Shown here piece by piece: positions 1 to 45,520 of a stretch of 48,839 nucleotides of DNA. The DNA comes from Candidatus Fraserbacteria bacterium (GTDB taxonomy: Bacteria; Bipolaricaulota; Bipolaricaulia; RBG-16-55-9). Every line of letters begins with the position of its first letter. The first letter of the stretch is position 1. Position numbers and translations under genes: made by a program. The notes under the pieces were generated by a model that saw only the letters and a list, made by a program, of their open reading frames with translations, had not been told where the DNA came from and searched no databases. The DNA lies in the NCBI GenBank assembly GCA_037443265.1, contig JBBIOR010000001.1:1-48839 (forward strand), in the 5' to 3' direction.

Positions 1-1571
1 CGAGGCCCAAGCTGCAGATTGTCAGGCCTACTCCAGAGCGGAAAGAGGTGCAGCCAGTAGTGAAGCAGGGCAGCGAACTGAAACCAACATTCCAATACTG
101 TCCATACCAATATTATGGCAGGCTCGCCCCATTTAAGGAAGTGATGTGCCAAAGCTACTGGCACATCTGGCACCGCAAGGTATGGCAAACAGGCAAGATC
201 CATGACAATGTGCTTCAACTCTACAATAATGCCATCACGAAGGGCGCAGACTATGGCATCGTCTACACCTACGAGAAGAAACGTGACATGAGGCTTATGT
301 TGGCAGGATTTAAACAGATGAGTTCATCTCAACTAAAAGAGATGTTGGACGTCTATGCTGGCCTATCAAGCACCACGATTAGTAATGCTGACCTCCTTGG
401 GGGTATAAAGAGTGCTCTAGCTCCTTGTGTAATCCAGGCTTTTGACGATCTGACACAACTACTTACCACCACGGATTTCAGCGACAAGGTTTGGATCTGG
501 AGGGAAAGTTGTTCGATCTTCAATCAAATGGTTCGGGAATTCGAAGAACATCTCGGAGATCGTACCCTAGGAGTCCTCAAGGAATTAATCTCTCAAATCG
601 GTTCACTAGACAGTGAAAGAAAGATTGTTCTATGGGCACTTCTCATAGATCGTCAATACGAGTTAATTACAGAAATTCGCTCTTTGGTGAGCATCATAGC
701 GTCCAAAATTCTGGCACTAGGCATTCAGGATGTCGACCCTTTCAGAACACCGCCCGAACTGCTAGCGGCCACTACGATTATCGTTGCCGAACAAGTCCTC
801 TTTGCTATTATGTCCTGTCAGGAATGTGATCGAATGGCGGTGCTGACCCACTATCGTAATCGACTTAGGGAAGTGGCAGCAGTACCACCAGATCCTAGGA
901 TTTTTGGACTTGCTTTCAATGGCTTGCGTCATGAACTTACCTCAGTAGTGCAATTAAATTTATACGGATGGGATTTAATTGATTATTCCAAACCTGTATC
1001 CACGAGTATCGGTCGTACCGAGATCGATATTATCGCTACCAAAAACGTCCCTGGAGTTGGGAAAGTGGCTTCCTTCGTCGAAGTAAAGGCAGGCAGCTTG
1101 TTTCTTATCGGAATGCCCGATGCCCAAGCTGCGGCGAATCAGCTTACACGATACCTCAATTATGTCTTACAGGTGCAGCAGTATTGTGCCTTAGGGAACG
1201 CCTGCGAGGTGGGGGCAGATATGCGTGTAGTAGCCTTTATCTTCCATGGTATAAGCATTTCAAACACTGCTGAGTGGCTAGCTAATACCGCTGCAAGCGT
1301 TAGCTCAGGAATTCCAGTAATCGTAATCTACTGCATCTCCAATTGTGGAACTGCCAATGCAAGGTATGCAATAGCTCATAATCCACATGTCTCTGTTACG
1401 CAAGCCCAAGCAATCTGTGCAGCCATGGGCTACTGTATCACACCTGCCTTACCACCTCCTTTGAATGCTGTGGTTGTAGATCCTGTGCCACCTCTAAAGA
1501 GTCCACCGAGCTTGTGTCGCAGGCAACCATGCCTTGAGATTCAAGGTATAGGAACACTACAAGATCAGTAG
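1..1571 (+). CDS. Hypothetical protein A1 (5'-partial). Frame is open to the window start and the listed GTG at 48 is probably internal. Paralog of the 2892..4340 product: Pro-rich region, then a conserved Cys/aromatic-rich domain (KPTFQYCPYQYYG...).
   Basis: Six-frame ORF; clear paralogy to ORF 2892..4340 (KPxFxYCPYxYYG...C.W..W.K.W...VVY..KR..L.AGFK..SS.QL..MLD; also GNxC..GA..VV.F.F...IPVIV near the C-terminus). No stop upstream in frame. AT-rich codon usage (~45% GC) unlike the rest of the window. Confidence 0.55.
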   Translation, partial: RPKLQIVRPTPERKEVQPVVKQGSELKPTFQYCPYQYYGRLAPFKEVMCQSYWHIWHRKVWQTGKIHDNVLQLYNNAITKGADYGIVYTYEKKRDMRLMLAGFKQMSSSQLKEMLDVYAGLSSTTISNADLLGGIKSALAPCVIQAFDDLTQLLTTTDFSDKVWIWRESCSIFNQMVREFEEHLGDRTLGVLKELISQIGSLDSERKIVLWALLIDRQYELITEIRSLVSIIASKILALGIQDVDPFRTPPELLAATTIIVAEQVLFAIMSCQECDRMAVLTHYRNRLREVAAVPPDPRIFGLAFNGLRHELTSVVQLNLYGWDLIDYSKPVSTSIGRTEIDIIATKNVPGVGKVASFVEVKAGSLFLIGMPDAQAAANQLTRYLNYVLQVQQYCALGNACEVGADMRVVAFIFHGISISNTAEWLANTAASVSSGIPVIVIYCISNCGTANARYAIAHNPHVSVTQAQAICAAMGYCITPALPPPLNAVVVDPVPPLKSPPSLCRRQPCLEIQGIGTLQDQ

Positions 1572-1592
1572 TCATGAAGCACTGAACGAGCA

Positions 1593-2861
1593 ATGATAAG
1601 GCAAATCATTATAGTGTTGCTTGTGCTCCCCCTTGGTTGGGCAGTCACAGTAAACCATTTCGGCTATGATACTACTCAGTTTGTTGTAGAAGGGGGATCT
1701 ATGATTCTGAAGGTTCCACAGGACTATCCCACAATTCAAGAAGCTATTGAAGCAGCTCCGGCCGGCAGCACAATTGTAGTAGCTCCCGGTACTTACCGTG
1801 AGAACCTGACCATCTATAAATCTTTGACGCTCAAGGGGTTTGAGGCCAGATTGCAAGCCAAGGAGTCTCAACCAGCCGTCCGCTTTCAGAATGCAGATGA
1901 GGTCTCCATGGAAGACTTCCTGATTCGTCCCCAAGAAGATCCGCCCGGAAGAGGTATTCCCTTGCACCCACCATCCGAACCTTCAATGGGCATTCTCATC
2001 ACGGGAGATACGCGCGCCTTCCTAAAATGGAATTATCTCCAGGATTGGACCATAGGGGTCCAGGTTGAGTCGGGGGCTTCAGCCCTGCTGGTGGAGAACA
2101 GTATATGGACAAATGCAGTCAATGCCAAGGGACTTGTCATACAAGAAGCGGAGGCTACCCTGCAAACCAATAGGCTCTATATCGAATCGTCTCTAGAGTT
2201 TGTAGAAGGGATATACGCTTACAAAAGCCATCTGCGGGCGATTGAGAATCAGATCTTCATCTTGTTAGGTGCACGAGAGGTGGCTTCCGCTCTTTTCTTA
2301 GTCGACTCTGAGGCTGAGGTTTTGCGAAACATCTTCGTGGCTCAAAGATCAAATGGGGTCACTATCCAAGGCGCCGGGCACCTCACGATTGATGGGAACT
2401 ACATATCCACAGATTCTGTAGGAGTAAGCCTGTTAGGATCACAATACTTCGGATCCAATGGATGTGCTGTGATGATTAGGGCGAATTACCTCTATGGACT
2501 GCCGGGAGCGGGAGCTGGCTTTAGTATCCAAAACTTCCAAGCAGTAGATATTGCAGAGAACATGATCAACGGTTATCGAGTGGGTGTTTTTTGGGGCTCA
2601 GAAGGTCGCGGGCTAATGAAGCGAAATCTTATCGTCGGTAATCATGAGGACGGCGTGCTGATCGAACGCAGTGCCTTCAGAGTGCTACTGGAGGAGAATC
2701 GAATCCTGAGCAATGAGGGATGCGGCGTGCGGATTGCGGATGCACTGCAAAACAACTTGGAAGCCATAGAAGGAGAAGGGAACTGGATTGAGGGAAATCA
2801 ACAGGGAGACCTTTGTCCACTCGATTTCCCCTGGCCAGCTGGTTTTATTAAGAAGCCCTAA
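1593..2861 (+). CDS. Secreted right-handed parallel beta-helix repeat protein B1 (NosD/pectin-lyase-fold-like) with an N-terminal signal peptide.
   Basis: N-terminal hydrophobic signal (MIRQIIIVLLVLPLGWAV). Motif DYPTIQEAIEAAPAGSTIVVAPGTYRENLTIYKSLTLKG, typical of NosD/PbH1 beta-helix starts. Repeated NxIxxN/G turns. C-terminal GDLCPLDFPWPAGFIKKP shared with ORF 4563..5627. Confidence 0.6.
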   Translation: MIRQIIIVLLVLPLGWAVTVNHFGYDTTQFVVEGGSMILKVPQDYPTIQEAIEAAPAGSTIVVAPGTYRENLTIYKSLTLKGFEARLQAKESQPAVRFQNADEVSMEDFLIRPQEDPPGRGIPLHPPSEPSMGILITGDTRAFLKWNYLQDWTIGVQVESGASALLVENSIWTNAVNAKGLVIQEAEATLQTNRLYIESSLEFVEGIYAYKSHLRAIENQIFILLGAREVASALFLVDSEAEVLRNIFVAQRSNGVTIQGAGHLTIDGNYISTDSVGVSLLGSQYFGSNGCAVMIRANYLYGLPGAGAGFSIQNFQAVDIAENMINGYRVGVFWGSEGRGLMKRNLIVGNHEDGVLIERSAFRVLLEENRILSNEGCGVRIADALQNNLEAIEGEGNWIEGNQQGDLCPLDFPWPAGFIKKP

Positions 2862-2891
2862 GCGCAGGAGCTGGACTTCTCCCAGGCCCAG

Positions 2892-4340
2892 GTGGTCATT
2901 CTCGAGGCGGAGCAAGAGGAAGCCACGGCGCTGGTGGTGGTGCCCGAGGCAGCAGCCGGAGGCCAGGGGCTCTTGAGGGGAGGCTTCGGCTTCGATCTGG
3001 ATCGGGCGGTGTACACGGCCGTGAAGGTGCAGCGGGTCAGTGGGGGAGGAAGTCGGGCGAGCTGGCAGATTCTGCCTGAGCCTGTGCCGCAGCTGCCGGT
3101 GGTGGTACCGAAGCCCAGGCCGGGGGTGGGTCCGCCGAGGTTGCCGGCGCCCAAGCCAGTGCCACCGAGTCCGCCGCCTGCGCCGCCTGCTCCTGTGGTC
3201 AAGCCGGGCACAGCGCTGAAGCCGGTGTTTGAGTACTGCCCCTATGGGTACTATGGTGGGCCGGTGCCGGCCTTGAGCAAGGGCCTCTGCCAGGAATCTT
3301 GGGCCCAGTGGTACAAAAAGCAGTGGAATAATAGGCTGGTTCATGGGCAAATTTTACGAGCTACGAATACCATCGCTCAGCAGTCTTACAATGTTGTCTA
3401 TGCCTGGGATCGGAAGAGAGGGATCGATCTCATTGCCGCAGGCTTCAAAGGTCTAAGCTCAACACAGCTTCAGACGATGTTGGACCTTGCTGCCGCGAAG
3501 GTTCAAGAAGCCCAGCCGCAACTACCTCCCGAGATTTTACAACGATGGGAGCAAGCTAGCTCCTTGATCAACACGATCACACCTGCTGAGTTTGGGGGTT
3601 GGTTCGACGCTTTGAGTCAGGCCATTGAGCAAGGGCGATTTGACGAAGAGTACAGCCGCTTGCTGTCCCAAGGGCTCGAGCGATTACAGAACGCCCTGTT
3701 AATTCTCATGAATTCACAGGATACGCGAAGGGCCAAGGAGCTTCTCCGTAAAGCGGCGCAGGTCTGGGCACGACTTGCACAGGTCTCGCCGGAAGTTGGC
3801 GAAGCAATCAAAGAGCGCATGCGGGATGTGCGACTTCGCTTGGAGAGCAATTTCTTGCTCCTTATAGCTGCCTGTGACCTTGTACCAGGCGTCTGTACCA
3901 TTCTTCAAATCGAAGGCTTGGGAACAGTCGTCGTAGCAGGCAACTCGGTCGGGCAAGGTGGATGGGTATATAAGGGCCTCAGATTAGATCGAGATGGCTC
4001 TTACACCCAACAAGGTCTCGGGGACTGGTGGGGAGCGGTCTTACTCTTGCCTAAGGAGAAAAACCCTATGGGGCGCAGCATCGTCGCTGTTTCACGTGGA
4101 GACCATTGCGTCGACTGCGGGGCCAAGGCGGACGAAATCTCCACCTGGGTGAAAAGAGCTGTGGAACTCGCACCCTCCGTTCAAAAAGATAACGGAGGAG
4201 ATCTAGGCGTAGTGACTTTCGCCTTCACCAACCCCAATGCTAACGTAGCCTCAGTCTTGCAACGCCTAAGACAAGATCATCAGGATAGCCAGGTCCCTGT
4301 CATCGTTGCTTTGGATGGAGAATGGTCGAGTTCGGTATGA
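2892..4340 (+). CDS. Hypothetical protein A2, paralog of A1. The N-terminal Pro-rich low-complexity linker is followed by the conserved Cys/aromatic-rich domain. The exact start is uncertain.
   Basis: ORF; ~45% identity to A1 over the ~100-aa conserved domain (ALKPVFEYCPYGYYG...), weaker similarity through the rest. GC-rich Pro tract at ~3075-3210. Confidence 0.55.
   Translation: MVILEAEQEEATALVVVPEAAAGGQGLLRGGFGFDLDRAVYTAVKVQRVSGGGSRASWQILPEPVPQLPVVVPKPRPGVGPPRLPAPKPVPPSPPPAPPAPVVKPGTALKPVFEYCPYGYYGGPVPALSKGLCQESWAQWYKKQWNNRLVHGQILRATNTIAQQSYNVVYAWDRKRGIDLIAAGFKGLSSTQLQTMLDLAAAKVQEAQPQLPPEILQRWEQASSLINTITPAEFGGWFDALSQAIEQGRFDEEYSRLLSQGLERLQNALLILMNSQDTRRAKELLRKAAQVWARLAQVSPEVGEAIKERMRDVRLRLESNFLLLIAACDLVPGVCTILQIEGLGTVVVAGNSVGQGGWVYKGLRLDRDGSYTQQGLGDWWGAVLLLPKEKNPMGRSIVAVSRGDHCVDCGAKADEISTWVKRAVELAPSVQKDNGGDLGVVTFAFTNPNANVASVLQRLRQDHQDSQVPVIVALDGEWSSSV
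3075..3210 (+). repeat. Pro-rich low-complexity coding tract (PKPRPGVGPPRLPAPKPVPPSPPPAPPAPVVKP) inside A2.
   Basis: Read directly: runs of CCG/CCC/CCA codons. Antisense ORFs 2685..3350 and 2858..3211 are artefacts of this tract. Confidence 0.6.
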
Positions 4341-4562
4341 ATGCATCAGCCAAGGGTGTTCCAACCTCAGCTGGCAAGAACAGGAACGAATTGCCTGCAA
4401 CCAGCTGGGCCTAGCTGCCGGCTGTGCCGGTCCTCCATCTCAGGTGTCCGCCACCAATCCTCTACCAGCCGGCACGCCTCACCTCCCCCTCCTGATCCTA
4501 GTAGCTTTTGCCAGGGACGGATCTGTATCATTTGACAAGCTCCAGGACGCCAAGACTGGAGG

Positions 4563-5627
4563 ATGGATCATATGAGGGAAATGCTAGGGATGGTAACGAT
4601 TCTAGCTGCCACGCTGGTTGCAGTTAGCGGAGCTTCACTGAAATGGCAGGGGAGTGTGCTGTCGCAAGTTGCCTTCATCATCGAAGTGAGCTGCCCAGAT
4701 CCAGAGGGGTGCTGCTCCCTTCTGGCTAAGGCCATAGAGCAGGCTCCCGCAGGAGCTACCCTGCGGCTTGCTCCAGGCACTTACTATGAAAAACCCCTCA
4801 CCATCGAGAAGAGCCTCAGATTAGAGGGAGCCCCATCAGAGAGTGCCCGCAGCCCCCGCATTGTCCTTGTACAGGTGGGCACGGCCCTCCGGATCCGGGC
4901 AGGCAGCCCAATGACCGTGGAGCTTGAGCGCGTGTCCATTGAAGCCCTCGCTCAAGATCCCTTCAGTGGTGAAGAGAGCGTAGCTCTGGAGGTGTTTATT
5001 AAGACATCGAGTAATGTACAGGTTACACTGAAGGAGGTCGGTATCCGGAGCCATCAAGGGATCATGATTGGGGGCGATCAACCAGGGGCACTGGTCGTGG
5101 AGGTTATTGATACGAACATTCTTGCTGGCAGAGGAGGGATCGGTATGAACTTGGGGCGGCTGATCCTGCAGGGGAGCACCTTGCGCGGCCCTAACTCTGT
5201 CCTCGCTGCCTTGTCAACTCCCTTTCACGGGGTCTTTCTACAACCCATCCCTTCCGGACGGGTTGAGGCTGTTTTAACCAAGAACCTCATCGAAGGCTTT
5301 AGCGTTGGCCTGTGGGCAACTGCCAGCAGCCACTTGGGGCAGGGGAGGGTAGACCTTCAAGGGGTAGAAAACGTGATCGCCTCCAATCGCCAAGATGGTC
5401 TTTATCTCCTAGGGGATCGAGTCGATGCCGAGCTAAACCGAAATGATATTCGCGAGAACGGTGGCTATGGAATCCGGTTAGCTCTACCCGATTGCACAAG
5501 CGTGCCACGTGAGTTTCGATTCCAAGGAGTTATACGGGGGACTGAGAACGAATTCTTCAACAATAAATCAGGGAATCTTTGTCCACCGGATTACCCCTGG
5601 CCCCCGAACTTCATCAAGAAGCCCTAG
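4563..5627 (+). CDS. Secreted right-handed beta-helix repeat protein B2 (paralog of B1). The true start is probably the ATG at 4572 or 4581, downstream of GGAGG.
   Basis: Signal peptide (MLGMVTILAATLVAVSGASL). Motif LLAKAIEQAPAGATLRLAPGTYYEKPLTIEKSLRLEG. C-terminal GNLCPPDYPWPPNFIKKP identical in pattern to B1. Confidence 0.6.
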   Translation: MDHMREMLGMVTILAATLVAVSGASLKWQGSVLSQVAFIIEVSCPDPEGCCSLLAKAIEQAPAGATLRLAPGTYYEKPLTIEKSLRLEGAPSESARSPRIVLVQVGTALRIRAGSPMTVELERVSIEALAQDPFSGEESVALEVFIKTSSNVQVTLKEVGIRSHQGIMIGGDQPGALVVEVIDTNILAGRGGIGMNLGRLILQGSTLRGPNSVLAALSTPFHGVFLQPIPSGRVEAVLTKNLIEGFSVGLWATASSHLGQGRVDLQGVENVIASNRQDGLYLLGDRVDAELNRNDIRENGGYGIRLALPDCTSVPREFRFQGVIRGTENEFFNNKSGNLCPPDYPWPPNFIKKP

Positions 5628-5885
5628 ATGAAAACGCTGCTGGGTTCTGCCCTGGGTGTCTTGGCCTTGCTCGCTCCCAGCGCGCTAGCCGCTCCCAGCC
5701 TCTCCTTAAGCGGGATCTTCCTGGGCGAGCCCGATATCTTCGTCCCCGGCCTGGGAGTGAGCGTCAAGTTCCCCTTCACCCGCTCCCTGAATGGACTTGC
5801 GGGTGCAGCTCTTTTTCTGTCCGGCAGCTGGAATCTCAAGACGGGCGTCGCTTGGCCGCTCTCCTCCTGCTGCTCTTCGACGTGA
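5628..5885 (+). CDS. Small secreted protein with signal peptide and alternating beta-strand pattern. Probably the N-terminal part of a frameshifted ~135-aa beta-barrel-like protein that continues in another frame to 6040.
   Basis: Start overlaps the B2 stop (TAGATG). Signal MKTLLGSALGVLALLAPSALA. Downstream frame 5885..6040 encodes ...LSLPLSRSWAFFNELSLNVPLAARFLQPEFAVGFSLSF, ending in an OMP-like aromatic C-terminal strand. Confidence 0.4.
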   Translation: MKTLLGSALGVLALLAPSALAAPSLSLSGIFLGEPDIFVPGLGVSVKFPFTRSLNGLAGAALFLSGSWNLKTGVAWPLSSCCSST

Positions 5886-6040
5886 TTGACGACTTGGTGC
5901 CCCAGCTGGGAGCGGGAGTGCGCTTGAGTCTTCCGCTCTCTCGTTCGTGGGCGTTCTTCAACGAGCTGAGCCTGAATGTGCCTCTCGCGGCCCGCTTCCT
6001 CCAGCCGGAATTCGCTGTAGGATTCTCGCTCTCCTTCTGA
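5885..6040 (+). pseudogene. Out-of-frame continuation (C-terminal beta-strand region ending ...GFSLSF) of the small secreted protein. Frame switch is near the CTCCTCCTGCTGCTCTTC tract at ~5860-5877.
   Basis: Frame-2 translation downstream of the frame-0 stop at 5883-5885 gives amphipathic beta-strand-like sequence with a terminal Phe. Upstream of ~5850 the same frame reads as non-protein-like. Confidence 0.3.
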
Positions 6041-6127
6041 TCTTTCGACTTCGAGCGCCGCGAAAAACAGCGTAGCTATTTGCTTGATTCTGTGCCAATC
6101 TGCTAAGCTGCCCTCCGGTGGTCCCCT

Positions 6128-6991
6128 TTGAGCCATACTCAGCGCGTTATCGATATTCACGTGCACATCCAGCCCTGGAGGATGCTCAAGCCCCAAGTAC
6201 TCGCCCTCTGGAGGCGCCATCATCCGGACTTCGATCGATTGCTCACGCTCGCCGACAGTCCCAGCGAGTTCTTAAGGCTCATGGACCAAGAGGGCCTGGA
6301 GCGGGCCGCCCTCATCAACTACGTCAGCCCCGAGGTGATGGGCTTCACAGACGACGTGAACGAGTTCATCTCGAAATATTGCCAAGCGGCACCCGATCGC
6401 CTCATCCCGGCGGGTTCGCTCCACCCCAGAGATCTCAAAGACCCCAAGGCCCAAATGAGCCATCTCGTGGAAGATCTGGGGATCAAGATGATCAAAATTC
6501 ATCCCCCCCATCAGCTCTTCTATCCCAATGAATATCTAAGCGGGCTCGACGCCTTGGCGGTCATCTACGAGCAGGCGCAAAGTTATAATATCCCCATCAT
6601 GTTTCACACGGGCACTTCGATCTTCCCGGCCGCCAGAATCAAATATGGCGATCCCATATTTCTGGATGACGTAGCCCTCGATTTCCCAAAGCTGAACATC
6701 ATTATGGCCCACGGCGGGCGGCCCCTCTGGATGAGCACAGCCTTCTTCCTCCTCCGGCGGCATCCCAATGTGTTTCTAGACATCTCCGGGATTCCGCCCC
6801 AGAATCTTTTGAGTTATTTCCCGCGCCTGGAGGAAATCGCGCTCAAGACGATGTTCGGCAGCGACTGGCCGGGACCGGGCGTAAGAAGCATTCGCACCAA
6901 TATCGAGAATTTTCTGGAACTGCCCATCTCTTCCGAGAGCCAGCGGGCCATTCTCTACGAGACAGCCGCCAGACTCTTCCCCTCGCGCTAG
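6128..6991 (+). CDS. Amidohydrolase-2 family TIM-barrel metal-dependent hydrolase (TTG start).
   Basis: N-terminal IDIHVHI (HxH) motif, IIMAHGGRP (HGG) and FGSDWP near the C-terminus, as in the ACMSD/LigI-like amidohydrolase-2 family. Confidence 0.7.
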   Translation: MSHTQRVIDIHVHIQPWRMLKPQVLALWRRHHPDFDRLLTLADSPSEFLRLMDQEGLERAALINYVSPEVMGFTDDVNEFISKYCQAAPDRLIPAGSLHPRDLKDPKAQMSHLVEDLGIKMIKIHPPHQLFYPNEYLSGLDALAVIYEQAQSYNIPIMFHTGTSIFPAARIKYGDPIFLDDVALDFPKLNIIMAHGGRPLWMSTAFFLLRRHPNVFLDISGIPPQNLLSYFPRLEEIALKTMFGSDWPGPGVRSIRTNIENFLELPISSESQRAILYETAARLFPSR

Positions 6992-42431: not shown

Positions 42432-43814
42432 ATGAGGGCGTTATCTAAGCAGCAGCTGGAAAAGCTCCGGGCTCTGTTGGGGCCTGAGAAGATCTCGCAG
42501 AATCCCTCCGATCTGGCCGCTCATGCGCGCGATGAGTCGGCCCACGGCGAGTTCCCTCCCGATGTGATCGTCTACGCCCACTCGACGGAAGACGTCTCCC
42601 AAGTGCTCAGATTCTGCCATGATGAGAAGATTCCCGTGACGCCCTGGGGGGCGGGGACGAGCCTGGAGGGCAATCCCGTGGCCGTCTTGGGCGGCCTCTG
42701 CCTCGACCTATCGAGGATGAATCAGATTCTGAAGATTCAGCCGGAGGATTTCCAAGTGACGGTGCAGCCGGGCGTCGTGCTGCAGGAACTCAACAAGCGC
42801 TTGAGCAAATATGGGCTCTTCTTCCCGCCGGACCCCGGAGCCCCCTGCACCATCGGTGGCATGGTGGCCAACAACGCCGCGGGCATCCAAGCTGTAAAAT
42901 ACGGCCCGACGAAGAACTACGTGCTCAAGCTGGAGGTCGTGCTCGCCAATGGGGATGTGATCACGTGCGGCACGAATGCCTTGCGCACGTCATCCGGCTA
43001 TGATCTGTTACATCTGTTCATCGGCTCCGAGGGGACCCTAGGCGTATTTACGGAGATCACATTGAAACTGGCTGGGCTTCCGCGGGAGGTCTCCGCGGCC
43101 ACGGCCTCTTTCCGTGCGCTTAGGCAGGCCACAGAGACGGTGGTGGAGGTCCTGCAGGCGGGACTTGCGCCTGCGGCCCTGGAACTCATGGACGCCATCA
43201 CCGTGCGAGACATCAACGCCTTCAAAAATCTCTCATGGCCTGAGATGCCTACGCTCTTTTTAGAATTTCGCGGCAACGGGCCGGAGGTGGCGGAAGACGT
43301 CCGCCTGGCTCAAGAGATCTGCCAGGACCACGAGTGCCTTTCGTATCAAATCGCCATGGGACGCCCAGAGCGCGACCGGCTCTGGGAAGCAAGACATCAT
43401 GCGTATTATGCCTCAGCGGCGGCCAATCCCGGCAAGCGCGCGATCGTCACCGACGTGGCGGTTCCCATCAGCAAGTTTCCAGAGATGGTCGAGTTCTCCC
43501 GGCAGAAGCTGGCCGAGCACGGCCTGAGCGGCCCGATTCTGGGCCATGCGGGCGATGGGAATTTTCATGTGGGGATCTTCTACGAGGATACAGCCGCAAG
43601 CAAAGCCAAAGCCCATGCGGTCAACGAAGCCATAGTGTTGCACGCGCTTGAACTGGGCGGCACGGCCACCGGCGAGCACGGCGTGGGAGTGGGCAAGATC
43701 CGCTTTATGAGAGCCGAGCACGGCAAGAGCTATGAATTGATGCGACAGATCAAAAAACTGCTTGATCCCAACGGGATTCTCAATCCGGGCAAGATCTTCG
43801 ATGAGAGAAGCTAG
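42432..43814 (+). CDS. FAD-linked oxidase (GlcD/D-lactate dehydrogenase-like).
   Basis: PCMH-type FAD-binding domain (VTPWGAGTSLEGNPVA), C-terminal FAD-oxidase domain. ATG at 42432 after GGAGG is preferred over the track start at 42363. Confidence 0.8.
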   Translation: MRALSKQQLEKLRALLGPEKISQNPSDLAAHARDESAHGEFPPDVIVYAHSTEDVSQVLRFCHDEKIPVTPWGAGTSLEGNPVAVLGGLCLDLSRMNQILKIQPEDFQVTVQPGVVLQELNKRLSKYGLFFPPDPGAPCTIGGMVANNAAGIQAVKYGPTKNYVLKLEVVLANGDVITCGTNALRTSSGYDLLHLFIGSEGTLGVFTEITLKLAGLPREVSAATASFRALRQATETVVEVLQAGLAPAALELMDAITVRDINAFKNLSWPEMPTLFLEFRGNGPEVAEDVRLAQEICQDHECLSYQIAMGRPERDRLWEARHHAYYASAAANPGKRAIVTDVAVPISKFPEMVEFSRQKLAEHGLSGPILGHAGDGNFHVGIFYEDTAASKAKAHAVNEAIVLHALELGGTATGEHGVGVGKIRFMRAEHGKSYELMRQIKKLLDPNGILNPGKIFDERS

Positions 43815-45307
43815 TTGCGTATCGTCACGGGCACGAGCACCGAAGCACGCACGCCCTTGGCGTCTGTGACACTGGCCCGTAAGAGGTATGTGCCGTTGGG
43901 GAGCTTCGTCGTATCCCACAGGGTGCGGAAGCCGTCTTGGTAGCTGCGATCCACACCGATCTCTACAAAATGCTTCCCATCGCGGGAGTACTCAAAGAGC
44001 GCGAAGCTGAAGCTCTGTAGATCTAAAAATCCCTCGGCCGTCACGCTCAGTTCTATCTGGCCGGAGCAGACGCTCTGGGGGCAGAAGGAGAGCCAGCGGA
44101 CTGTGGCCTCGGTCACGTGGACGATAGGGGGATTGGCCGGCGGATTGGCCGCGGCGGAGAGTTGAGCCTGGAGTTGTCCCAGAGCCTCTTTCGTCCGCTG
44201 ACATTGGCTGGCCCGCAGATGGGCGCGAGGCTGAGGGGTCACGCCGGAGCCCTTCATGAGATTCATGGGATCGCTGATGGTGTCTGCCAAGCCGTCCTCG
44301 CCCGGATGAGCCAGCCCCAGGTTGTGACCCAACTCATGGGCCAACGTCGAGATCATCTGCTTGGGGGTGATGCCCTGGAAGAGGGCACCCCAGCGGATGA
44401 TCACATAATTGGGCCAGCCACTCTCGCTGAATCCTTCGATGTCCCTAAGCTCTCCTTCCCACAAGGTGAGGATCCTTGCGCCGACGACGAGCACGTTGAA
44501 CGCTTGAGCCGCACGCGGCTCCTTCTCCTGAGCGGCCTGCCACAGAGCAAAGGTGGCTTGCCGCAAGAGATTTCCGGCCTCACGGCCGTGGTAGATCATC
44601 AGGCCCCTCTCATCCTGGAGGAAGAGCTTTTCAGCGAGGGTCCCACCGGAGACGGACACGCGCTCGGGCTGGACCACCCAGACGCCCGCTAGAGAGAAGC
44701 CCACGCCGCACTGATCCCAGATGCCCGAAAGCTTGGGTAGAACGTACGCTTGAATCATGGTCAGCACATTGGGACGGGGCTGCCCCAGCAGGCTGCCCTC
44801 TGGAATGGAAGCCCCTTCGGCTAGAGCGGTCTCCCCGTCGTCCAGAATGAAGACGTTCAGCGCGATCTGTTGACCGATGGGGAGAACGCGTTGCTGCTCC
44901 TCATCGAAGTTGTATAGCGGCGGCTGCCCACAGGTGAAGCTAAACGGAACGGACTCGCTTCGCTCGCCCGCCGCATCGAAGAGCGTCACAGCCAGCGTGA
45001 TTTGCTGGTCATACTCAGTGCAGCGGAGCGCGAAGCTCATTTCTCCCTGGGCGGTCGCCCCGGCGCGCACAGGAACGTTCATACGATAATACCGGCCATC
45101 GAGCACATCAAAGCGGGCATAGAGAACATCTTGATCGGGATCTTGATAGCGCAGCTGGCCCATGGCCGTAGCGTTGATCTCAACGTTGGCCGGAAAGCTC
45201 AAATCAGAGATCGTGGGAGGCGCAGCCCAAACGTTGAAGATGAACACAAATGGGATGCTAGCTAAGAAGGTCAGCCACCAGCCGACTCGTCTGAGTCTAG
45301 TCTTCAT
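43811..45307 (-). CDS. Secreted metzincin-type zinc metalloprotease with a C-terminal beta-sandwich domain.
   Basis: Signal/TM N-terminus; HELGHNLGLAH (HExxHxxGxxH) zinc-binding motif with a downstream Met-turn candidate (SDPMNLM). Confidence 0.7.
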   Translation of the reverse strand: MKTRLRRVGWWLTFLASIPFVFIFNVWAAPPTISDLSFPANVEINATAMGQLRYQDPDQDVLYARFDVLDGRYYRMNVPVRAGATAQGEMSFALRCTEYDQQITLAVTLFDAAGERSESVPFSFTCGQPPLYNFDEEQQRVLPIGQQIALNVFILDDGETALAEGASIPEGSLLGQPRPNVLTMIQAYVLPKLSGIWDQCGVGFSLAGVWVVQPERVSVSGGTLAEKLFLQDERGLMIYHGREAGNLLRQATFALWQAAQEKEPRAAQAFNVLVVGARILTLWEGELRDIEGFSESGWPNYVIIRWGALFQGITPKQMISTLAHELGHNLGLAHPGEDGLADTISDPMNLMKGSGVTPQPRAHLRASQCQRTKEALGQLQAQLSAAANPPANPPIVHVTEATVRWLSFCPQSVCSGQIELSVTAEGFLDLQSFSFALFEYSRDGKHFVEIGVDRSYQDGFRTLWDTTKLPNGTYLLRASVTDAKGVRASVLVPVTIRN

Positions 45308-45520
45308 GGTCCTTCGGCAGCCCGGCTGCCCTGGCGCGTATGCGCTGTAGGCCCGCGGCTTTGTGTCCCTCGGATTTCTCCGGGTTTACCCTTATCGGGA
45401 CCGTCTTTCAGCTCCTTTAACTTTTCAGGGTGATTTTACTTTAGCGCACCCCACTGGCCTTGTCAAGTATTCTGGCATACACTCAGGGAGATCTTTCGCC
45501 ATCGTGCTTAGGAGGAGAGC

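Follow-up and report, generated by a model that had tools for sequence, protein, structure and literature searches.

A conserved cysteine- and aromatic-rich domain at the constant/variable boundary of an exported lipoprotein family in uncultured Fraserbacteria and Bipolaricaulota

Introduction

What is the role of a short block, rich in Cys and aromatic residues, that is the only clearly shared part of two neighbouring proteins? The question is raised by a 48,839-nucleotide (nt) stretch of Candidatus Fraserbacteria DNA (contig JBBIOR010000001.1, read from position 1; hereafter the window), whose nt 1-5627 carry two tandem gene pairs on the + strand in the order A1-B1-A2-B2. An initial annotation, made from the sequence alone, had marked a conserved block behind a Pro-rich linker in both A proteins (60..360 in A1, 3200..3520 in A2), could assign it to no known domain family, and suggested a small binding or metal-coordinating module.

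We find that the block is genuine: a domain of ~105 residues, not described before, which is confined to one exported lipoprotein family of uncultured Fraserbacteria/Bipolaricaulota. It lies where the conserved part of these proteins gives way to an exchangeable one. The reading we favour, to which we assign a probability of roughly 0.55, is that the block serves as a junction module, akin to a pre-toxin domain, within a new family of polymorphic toxin-like lipoproteins.

Results

Compared directly by BLASTP (window 3-1571 vs 2892-4340), A1 and A2 share a single significant segment, A1 aa 23-156 with A2 aa 106-228 (34% identity, 56% positives, E=5e-24), and all remaining segments have E>=0.38. 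A profile built from eight copies of the block places its borders in the two genes close to those first marked:

3..1571, + strand: A1 gene, member of the lipoprotein family with an intact variable arm and a cut 5' end (open reading frame (ORF), translation)
48..374, + strand: A1 copy of the block (profile envelope aa 16-124, motif coordinates)
48-188, + strand: N-half of the A1 block, KPTFQYCPY...MCQSYW..HRKVWQ
189-374, + strand: C-half of the A1 block, with beta-hairpin, LMLAGF and helix
2892-4340, + strand: A2 ORF
3186..3509, + strand: A2 copy of the block (profile envelope, motif coordinates, AlphaFold2 (AF2) model)
~3186-3329, + strand: N-half of the A2 block, with KPVFEYCPY, LCQESW and YKKQW
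3330-3509, + strand: C-half of the A2 block, with LIAAGF and LQTMLDLAAA

Searched against 1.84e9 representative proteins, the profile returned 39 matches at E<=1e-3, 28 of them at E<=1e-10, well above what chance would give, and 38 of the 39 are true relatives; the other, P0043, is a SprB-repeat false positive. The source metagenome-assembled genomes (MAGs) of the relatives are recorded as Candidatus Fraserbacteria and Candidatus Bipolaricaulia. A narrow-alignment search for related loci gave four, all from one Fraserbacteria MAG, and word-index homology searches with the block alignment and with A1 returned no relatives, which reflects a limit of the index and not absence. The Cys/aromatic motif stands as it was first described, in the form FxYCPYxYYG...LCQxSWxxWYxKQW. 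Across 36 aligned sequences, C21 and G89 never vary, P22, C38 and K48 are nearly invariant, and no His or acidic column is conserved.

Full-length relatives show where the block sits. From the N-terminus they consist of a lipoprotein signal (L-T/A/S-G-C), an N-domain of 220-300 aa, an 'EALVVVP…D..RA..V.V.R' segment, an often Pro-rich stalk, the block, a helical region, a C-terminal domain, and a Cys-rich, Pro-containing tail. The lipobox is present in P0008, P0010, P0020, P0026, P0027, P0035, P0036, P0038, P0041, the 865-aa A gene of locus L006 and an 819-aa gene of L002, so the signal that the initial annotation had proposed to look for upstream of the Pro-rich tract exists in full-length relatives but not in A2. 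Likewise, the Pro-rich linker that it had described in both A proteins is clear in A2 (21 Pro in 55 residues, nt ~3040-3205), but A1, which has only 22 residues ahead of the block before the window and the contig end, is only mildly Pro-rich there. Across the family, pairwise identity averages 0.37 for the N-domain but 0.21 for the C-terminal domain, and the conserved stretch from the lipobox to WYxKQW spans about 300-365 residues (~360 aa in the L006 A gene).

The change from conserved to variable is abrupt. Taking the Cys loop and the WYxKQW helix as the N-half of the block, 23 family pairs share at least 75% identity over it; 22 of these fall to 18-48% in the C-half, and the same 22 show 17-35% over the next 120 aa downstream. 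The upstream 50 aa of such pairs are 48-95% identical where scorable. The same step is visible in the DNA of L006 and L007, paralogues from one Fraserbacteria MAG, which are 77-93% identical over aa ~59-358 and 43-67% identical immediately past WYKKQW. In the window, the constant part of the L006 A gene matches A1 nt 6-151 at 76% identity, and this match stops at the second Cys. Because the constant/variable boundary falls within the block, directly behind its WYxKQW helix, the block is a junction: its N-half is the end of the constant half, and its C-half opens an exchangeable cassette that also carries B.

A2 is a mosaic in the reverse sense to the L006/L007 pattern. Over nt 2862-3328 it shares 73-75% identity with L001/L002 (P0008/P0009 type), and over nt 3192-5632 it shares 83-84.5% with the L006 A-B pair (84.5% over 3913-5632). 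These two parental similarities overlap only at nt 3192-3328, which places the mosaic junction in the N-half of the block. The parts of A2 on either side of the block are:

2862..3185, + strand: A2 5' remnant, comprising the end of the N-domain (AQELDFSQAQVVILEAEQEEATALVVVPE...) and the Pro-rich stalk (homology to full-length A genes)
3510..4535, + strand: A2 variable arm, comprising the helical region and an 'RGDHCxDC'-type C-terminal domain (83-84% identical to the L006 A gene)

A2 is homologous to full-length A genes from the first codon past the B1 TAA onwards, and the remnant has no signal peptide and no lipobox. Set against the intact L006 A gene, A2 has lost 291 nt in frame at 3912/3913 and a further 13 nt near 4480, and a +1 insertion in a T run near 4306 gives rise to its stop at 4338-4340. 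This insertion may stem from the assembly; the 5'-truncation and the deletions do not. Since A2 is 5'-truncated, lacks a signal peptide and carries these lesions next to an intact B2, it is a decayed mosaic orphan cassette. It is doubtful that A2 is translated on its own, because the earliest start in the ORF list, GTG 2892, is 21 nt downstream of the sole AGGAG. The A2 remnant is in frame with B1, and only the B1 TAA stands between them (window 2859-2894). Two antisense ORFs, 2685-3350 (-, 221 aa) and 2858-3211 (-, 117 aa), are Arg/Gly/His-rich and overlap the Pro-rich stalk; as genes we rejected them as most likely artefacts of the GC-rich CCN (Pro-codon) run. A1 may be a functional copy, though its 5' end is missing.

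This arrangement recurs in other loci. A locus opens with a full-length A gene; the A copies behind it lack their 5' ends and often carry damage, and the B genes are intact. Arrays of truncated A with intact B occur in L002, L004, L005, L011 and the window, and no A fragment precedes the final B gene of L005. Further A copies are interrupted by an in-frame stop or frameshifts (L009 8999-11665; L002 9511-10001; L011 13299-15985), and in these decay and assembly error look alike because contig coverage is low (~2.3-2.7x for the Fraserbacteria MAG contigs, per contig names).

Every A gene is followed by a gene for an exported protein, B, usually a right-handed beta-helix and sometimes a beta-propeller. 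The two in the window are:

1593..2861, + strand: B1, exported right-handed beta-helix (Pfam Beta_helix 1.5e-18, NosD 1.2e-13; tail LCPLDFPWPAGFIKKP)
4563..5627, + strand: B2, intact exported beta-helix (weak Pfam Beta_helix and NosD matches; tail LCPPDYPWPPNFIKKP)

B1 has a hydrophobic N-terminal signal, and its best relative sits after the A1-type gene P0008 in L001. Genes like B2 sit after A2-type arms in L006 (E=1.4e-187), L005 (5e-135) and L004 (2.5e-47). The beta-propeller partners follow P0009 (L002), P0035 (L010) and P0027 (L011), with PQQ-like propellers accompanying the P0009/P0035 arm type. An A arm and its B are inherited together as a single unit. Over 12 pairs the similarity of A arms correlates with that of B cores (Spearman 0.53, Mantel p~0.0008), a correlation that could come from linkage alone. 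The otherwise hypervariable B proteins have an almost invariant C-terminal tail, LCPxDYPWPPxFIKKP (window 2811-2858 and 5577-5624; also L001, L002, L004-L006 and L009), and share a Cys-containing N-cap, VxCP..C...I..AI..A..G.TI...PGTY.E. The tail is missing from two L005 beta-helix genes and from the propeller partners.

The initial annotation's failure to place the block was borne out by profile and fold searches. Scans of A1 and A2 with Pfam, NCBIfam, PHROGs and PADLOC gave no family match; for Pfam there was nothing at E<=1, including pre-toxin families such as PT-VENN, and 30 true relatives had no pre-toxin-family match in Pfam at E<=0.01. The sole Pfam match in the A family (A1, A2 and 31 relatives scanned) is one PKD insert. 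The block has no similarity in Pfam to HINT, caspase, ZU5 or other processing domains. A Foldseek comparison of the block model with PDB folds gave no match (best E 0.6), and neither did PDB sequence profiles for the C-terminal domain. Two sets of candidate matches were rejected: those to HigB and MafB19 all stem from the false positive P0043, and one to uL10 (PDB sequence profile, block, E=0.03) was judged to be chance.

An AF2 model of the A2 block (nt 3177-3524) has a mean predicted local distance difference test score (pLDDT) of 77 and the order loop-H-H-H-E-E-H: an irregular Cys loop, three helices, a beta-hairpin and a long final helix. It gives the structural view that the initial annotation had proposed for finding a disulfide or Zn site, but the Cys loop itself reaches only pLDDT 52-65. 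The block is probably stapled by one disulfide, which is likelier than a metal site because there are only two conserved Cys, no conserved His, and the protein is exported.

At the other end of the arm, the C-terminal domains align as one alpha-beta-beta-beta-alpha-beta-alpha-beta-beta-alpha unit. In A1 this region contains:

888..1568, + strand: C-terminal domain of A1, PD-(D/E)xK fold with Cys-rich tail (model, alignment)
1017-1043, + strand: putative catalytic D of A1, TEIDIIATK
1074-1088, + strand: putative catalytic ExK of A1, FVEVK

The A1 model has an alpha-beta-beta-beta-alpha-beta core with D on strand 2 and ExK on strand 3, and it matches PD-(D/E)xK nucleases, CdiA-CT toxins among them. 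The D...ExK set (IDxxA...VEVK motif) is kept in A1, P0008, P0022 and P0041, with QxK instead in P0012 and the L009 A gene; the A2-type clade reads WWGAVLLL / IVAVSRGDHCxDC in place of the triad, and another clade reads …IEPFL. Because D and ExK are kept in A1 and replaced in A2, nuclease activity is plausible for A1 and not for A2. In all A proteins this core is followed by a conserved extension that carries 4-6 Cys (…C..GC……AC…G….C), then by a spacer rich in Pro and, at the terminus, a C….C(I/L/Q) pair (for example, window 1311-1568 and L006 about 3400-3644); this suggests a disulfide-knotted cap.

The remaining observations concern the surroundings of the two gene pairs. Directly after B2 there is one further candidate:

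5628..6040, + strand: possible third gene, small signal-peptide protein ending ...GFSLSF, split by a frameshift (frames 5628-5885 and 5840-6040)

Its end resembles that of an outer-membrane beta-barrel, and an intact homologue lies on an unrelated contig, in L010 at 5091-5498, directly after the partner of P0035 (E=1e-12 and 4e-19 for the two halves). No homologue follows the modules in L001, L004, L005 or L006, so this gene is only a possible accessory. A promoter/terminator scan of nt 1-6300 found nothing informative between genes. The G+C content of the A1-B1 cassette (window 1-3000) is 0.46-0.52, compared with about 0.56-0.63 in the rest of the window, which suggests a recently imported cassette. 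Far downstream, at 45312-45399 (-), is a c-di-GMP-I-GGC riboswitch (Rfam RF03167, 66.3 bits, E=1.4e-13), directly upstream of a gene (43811-45307, -) for a 498-aa signal-peptide protein with the zinc-metalloprotease-like motif HELGHNLGLAH.

Discussion

Polymorphic toxin loci are defined by a constant N-terminus, a variable C-terminus, a cognate downstream gene, orphan modules, homology for recombination and a pre-toxin domain (PMC4436062, PMC3482391). The A-B loci fit this definition, with a downstream gene that co-varies with the arm and with the block as the candidate homologous region and pre-toxin element; the toxic role of A and the immunity role of B are predictions from sequence. Under this reading, the constant half, made up of lipobox, N-domain, stalk and the N-half of the block, would be an anchoring or 'escort' part. 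The exchangeable arm, consisting of the C-half of the block, the helical region and a divergent PD-(D/E)xK-fold domain, would travel with B. The conserved N-half would provide DNA homology through which orphan arm-plus-B cassettes could swap onto the expressed full-length gene, as at the VENN region of CdiA, and in the protein the block may act as a structural adaptor between stalk and payload.

The block would thereby resemble known pre-toxin elements, such as the PT-VENN of CdiA, (Q/E)LYN, the PxxxxDPxGL of Rhs proteins and the end of DUF1020 in MafB, which are conserved just upstream of the variable C-terminus (PMC4436062). Like these, it marks the constant/variable boundary and is kept at the 5' end of orphan cassettes as homology. 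Unlike them, it is not a short motif but a folded domain of ~105 aa lying across the boundary, with a C-half that changes along with the arm, and its sequence is unrelated.

Among whole systems, SitA of myxobacteria appears to be the closest functional analogue of the A family. SitA has a lipobox, a conserved N-terminal 'escort domain' of ~300-375 aa, modular polymorphic nuclease C-termini and a cognate gene downstream (PMC8546572, PMC5562445). Both families combine a lipobox and a family-specific constant part with a polymorphic C-terminus, a downstream cognate gene and several loci per genome. The likeness is architectural only: the Pfam scans of the A proteins gave no family match, and no sequence similarity to SitA, whose escort domains fall into six families, was detected, although SitA sequences were not aligned directly. 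The SitA partner, SitI, is cytoplasmic, whereas B is large and an exported beta-helix or beta-propeller; and SitA C-termini come from many folds, whereas the A family diversifies one divergent PD-(D/E)xK fold, often without catalytic residues. We know of no TraAB outer-membrane exchange, by which SitA is delivered, in the Fraserbacteria/Bipolaricaulota phyla.

MafB of Neisseria, with a signal peptide, DUF1020, a variable C-terminus, mafI and orphan MafB-CT modules (PMC4436062, PMC3482391), is likewise Sec-exported, with a lineage-restricted N-domain, downstream cognate genes, many 5'-truncated orphans and several islands per genome. However, the signal peptide of MafB is a plain one and its lipoprotein, MafA, is a separate protein, whereas the A protein is itself the lipoprotein; the N-domains differ, and MafI proteins are small and cytoplasmic. 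The APD1/APD2 effectors of Amoebophilus also combine a signal peptide and lipobox with a lineage-specific N-domain and polymorphic C-termini (PMC3482391), but they are host-directed, have no immunity genes or cassette arrays, and are unrelated to A in sequence. Finally, the C-terminal domains of A are distinct from the Tox-REase-1..10 families and CdiA-CT (E. coli EC869 4g6u, Y. pseudotuberculosis 4zqu): no Pfam Tox-REase family matches A at E<=1, the A domain has the additional Cys-bearing segment, here a beta-beta-alpha extension, and the Pro-rich, Cys-capped tail, and most members, including A2, are without the triad.

Several points weigh against a toxin system, or against parts of the evidence for it. 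The triad, in the form D...(E/Q)xK, is kept only in the minority named above (A1, P0008, P0022, P0041, P0012 and the L009 A gene) and the large A2-type clade has lost it, as have certain full-length genes, P0020 among them. The C-terminal domains share one fold, and polymorphic toxins usually use many unrelated folds. B is exported, with a signal peptide and Cys-rich caps, yet immunity proteins against nuclease toxins are normally cytoplasmic. The correlation between A and B is open to the linkage explanation, the AF2 model is weakest exactly at the loop that bears the putative disulfide, and several source MAGs have low coverage, so that some frameshifts may be assembly errors. In addition, the A1 and A2 blocks, at 34% identity, are too dissimilar to recombine with each other; recombination between A1 and A2 within the window was considered and rejected on this amino acid identity and the lack of any DNA match. 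Our confidence in the toxin reading is moderate because the partner is large and exported, one fold has been diversified, and catalytic residues are often lost.

The main rival, which we consider possible but unlikely, is that A and B form a non-toxic surface recognition or adhesion pair, in which the arm, its endonuclease fold mostly catalytically dead, is a ligand, B is its cognate receptor, and the block is merely a hinge for variable heads involved in kin recognition or surface variation. Such a pair would account for the catalytic residues missing in most clades, for the extracytoplasmic, Cys-rich nature of both A and B, for their co-variation, and for the diversification of a single fold instead of many toxin folds. 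It would leave unexplained why A1, P0008, P0022 and P0041 retain a textbook IDxxA...VEVK nuclease motif and why decaying A copies accompany intact B genes, with one lone B, which is the signature of retained immunity genes and not of receptor-ligand pairs; nor do the proteins have repeats or adhesin domains, apart from the one PKD insert.

A more speculative proposal starts from the location of B. Exported B could be a new extracytoplasmic 'immunity' protein or receptor that catches a lipoprotein-borne endonuclease-fold payload outside the cytoplasm, in which case the surface of the B solenoid possibly mimics DNA, or A and B could be a non-toxic self-recognition lock-and-key built on a catalytically dead endonuclease fold; in both versions the block would be a universal socket. 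We put this forward only tentatively and think it rather improbable as a whole.

It is distinctly unlikely that the block is a processing or release module, in which autocleavage or a protease site would free the payload from the lipid-anchored stalk. Its position exactly at the constant/variable boundary, its invariant Cys-Pro and nearly invariant Lys, and the possible action of VENN in autocleavage (PMC4436062) are in keeping with such a role. However, the block offers no conserved His, Asp or Asn for a catalytic set, its comparison with known processing domains in Pfam was negative, and its two Cys are better explained as a disulfide of an exported protein.

Still less probable is that the block docks the B tail LCPxDYPWPPxFIKKP, so that two constants would join variable partners. 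Block and tail are both conserved, aromatic, Cys-containing islands within hypervariable proteins, but docking loses weight because some A genes keep the block although their partner has no such tail, namely P0009 (L002), P0035 (L010) and P0027 (L011), which are followed by propellers, and two beta-helix genes of L005 lack the tail as well. The original idea of a small metal-coordinating or redox module, prompted by two conserved Cys and many aromatic residues, is very unlikely to be right: a Zn site needs 3-4 ligands, whereas the block offers two (C21 and C38, ~16 residues apart and not CxxC, with Tyr for the second Cys in P0005) and no conserved His, Asp or Glu, and the protein that bears it is extracytoplasmic.

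The block, the N-domain of the A lipoproteins and the exported beta-solenoid/propeller type of partner are all undescribed, and the logic by which they are combined is that of polymorphic toxin systems. They define a lineage-restricted family in candidate phyla without cultured members, the Fraserbacteria/Bipolaricaulota, and the block is a precise, searchable marker with which further cassettes can be found and exchangeable payloads delimited. If B is indeed an immunity protein, these bacteria would have an unusual, extracytoplasmic form of protection against an endonuclease-fold toxin; if it is not, A and B would constitute a new cell-surface recognition pair.

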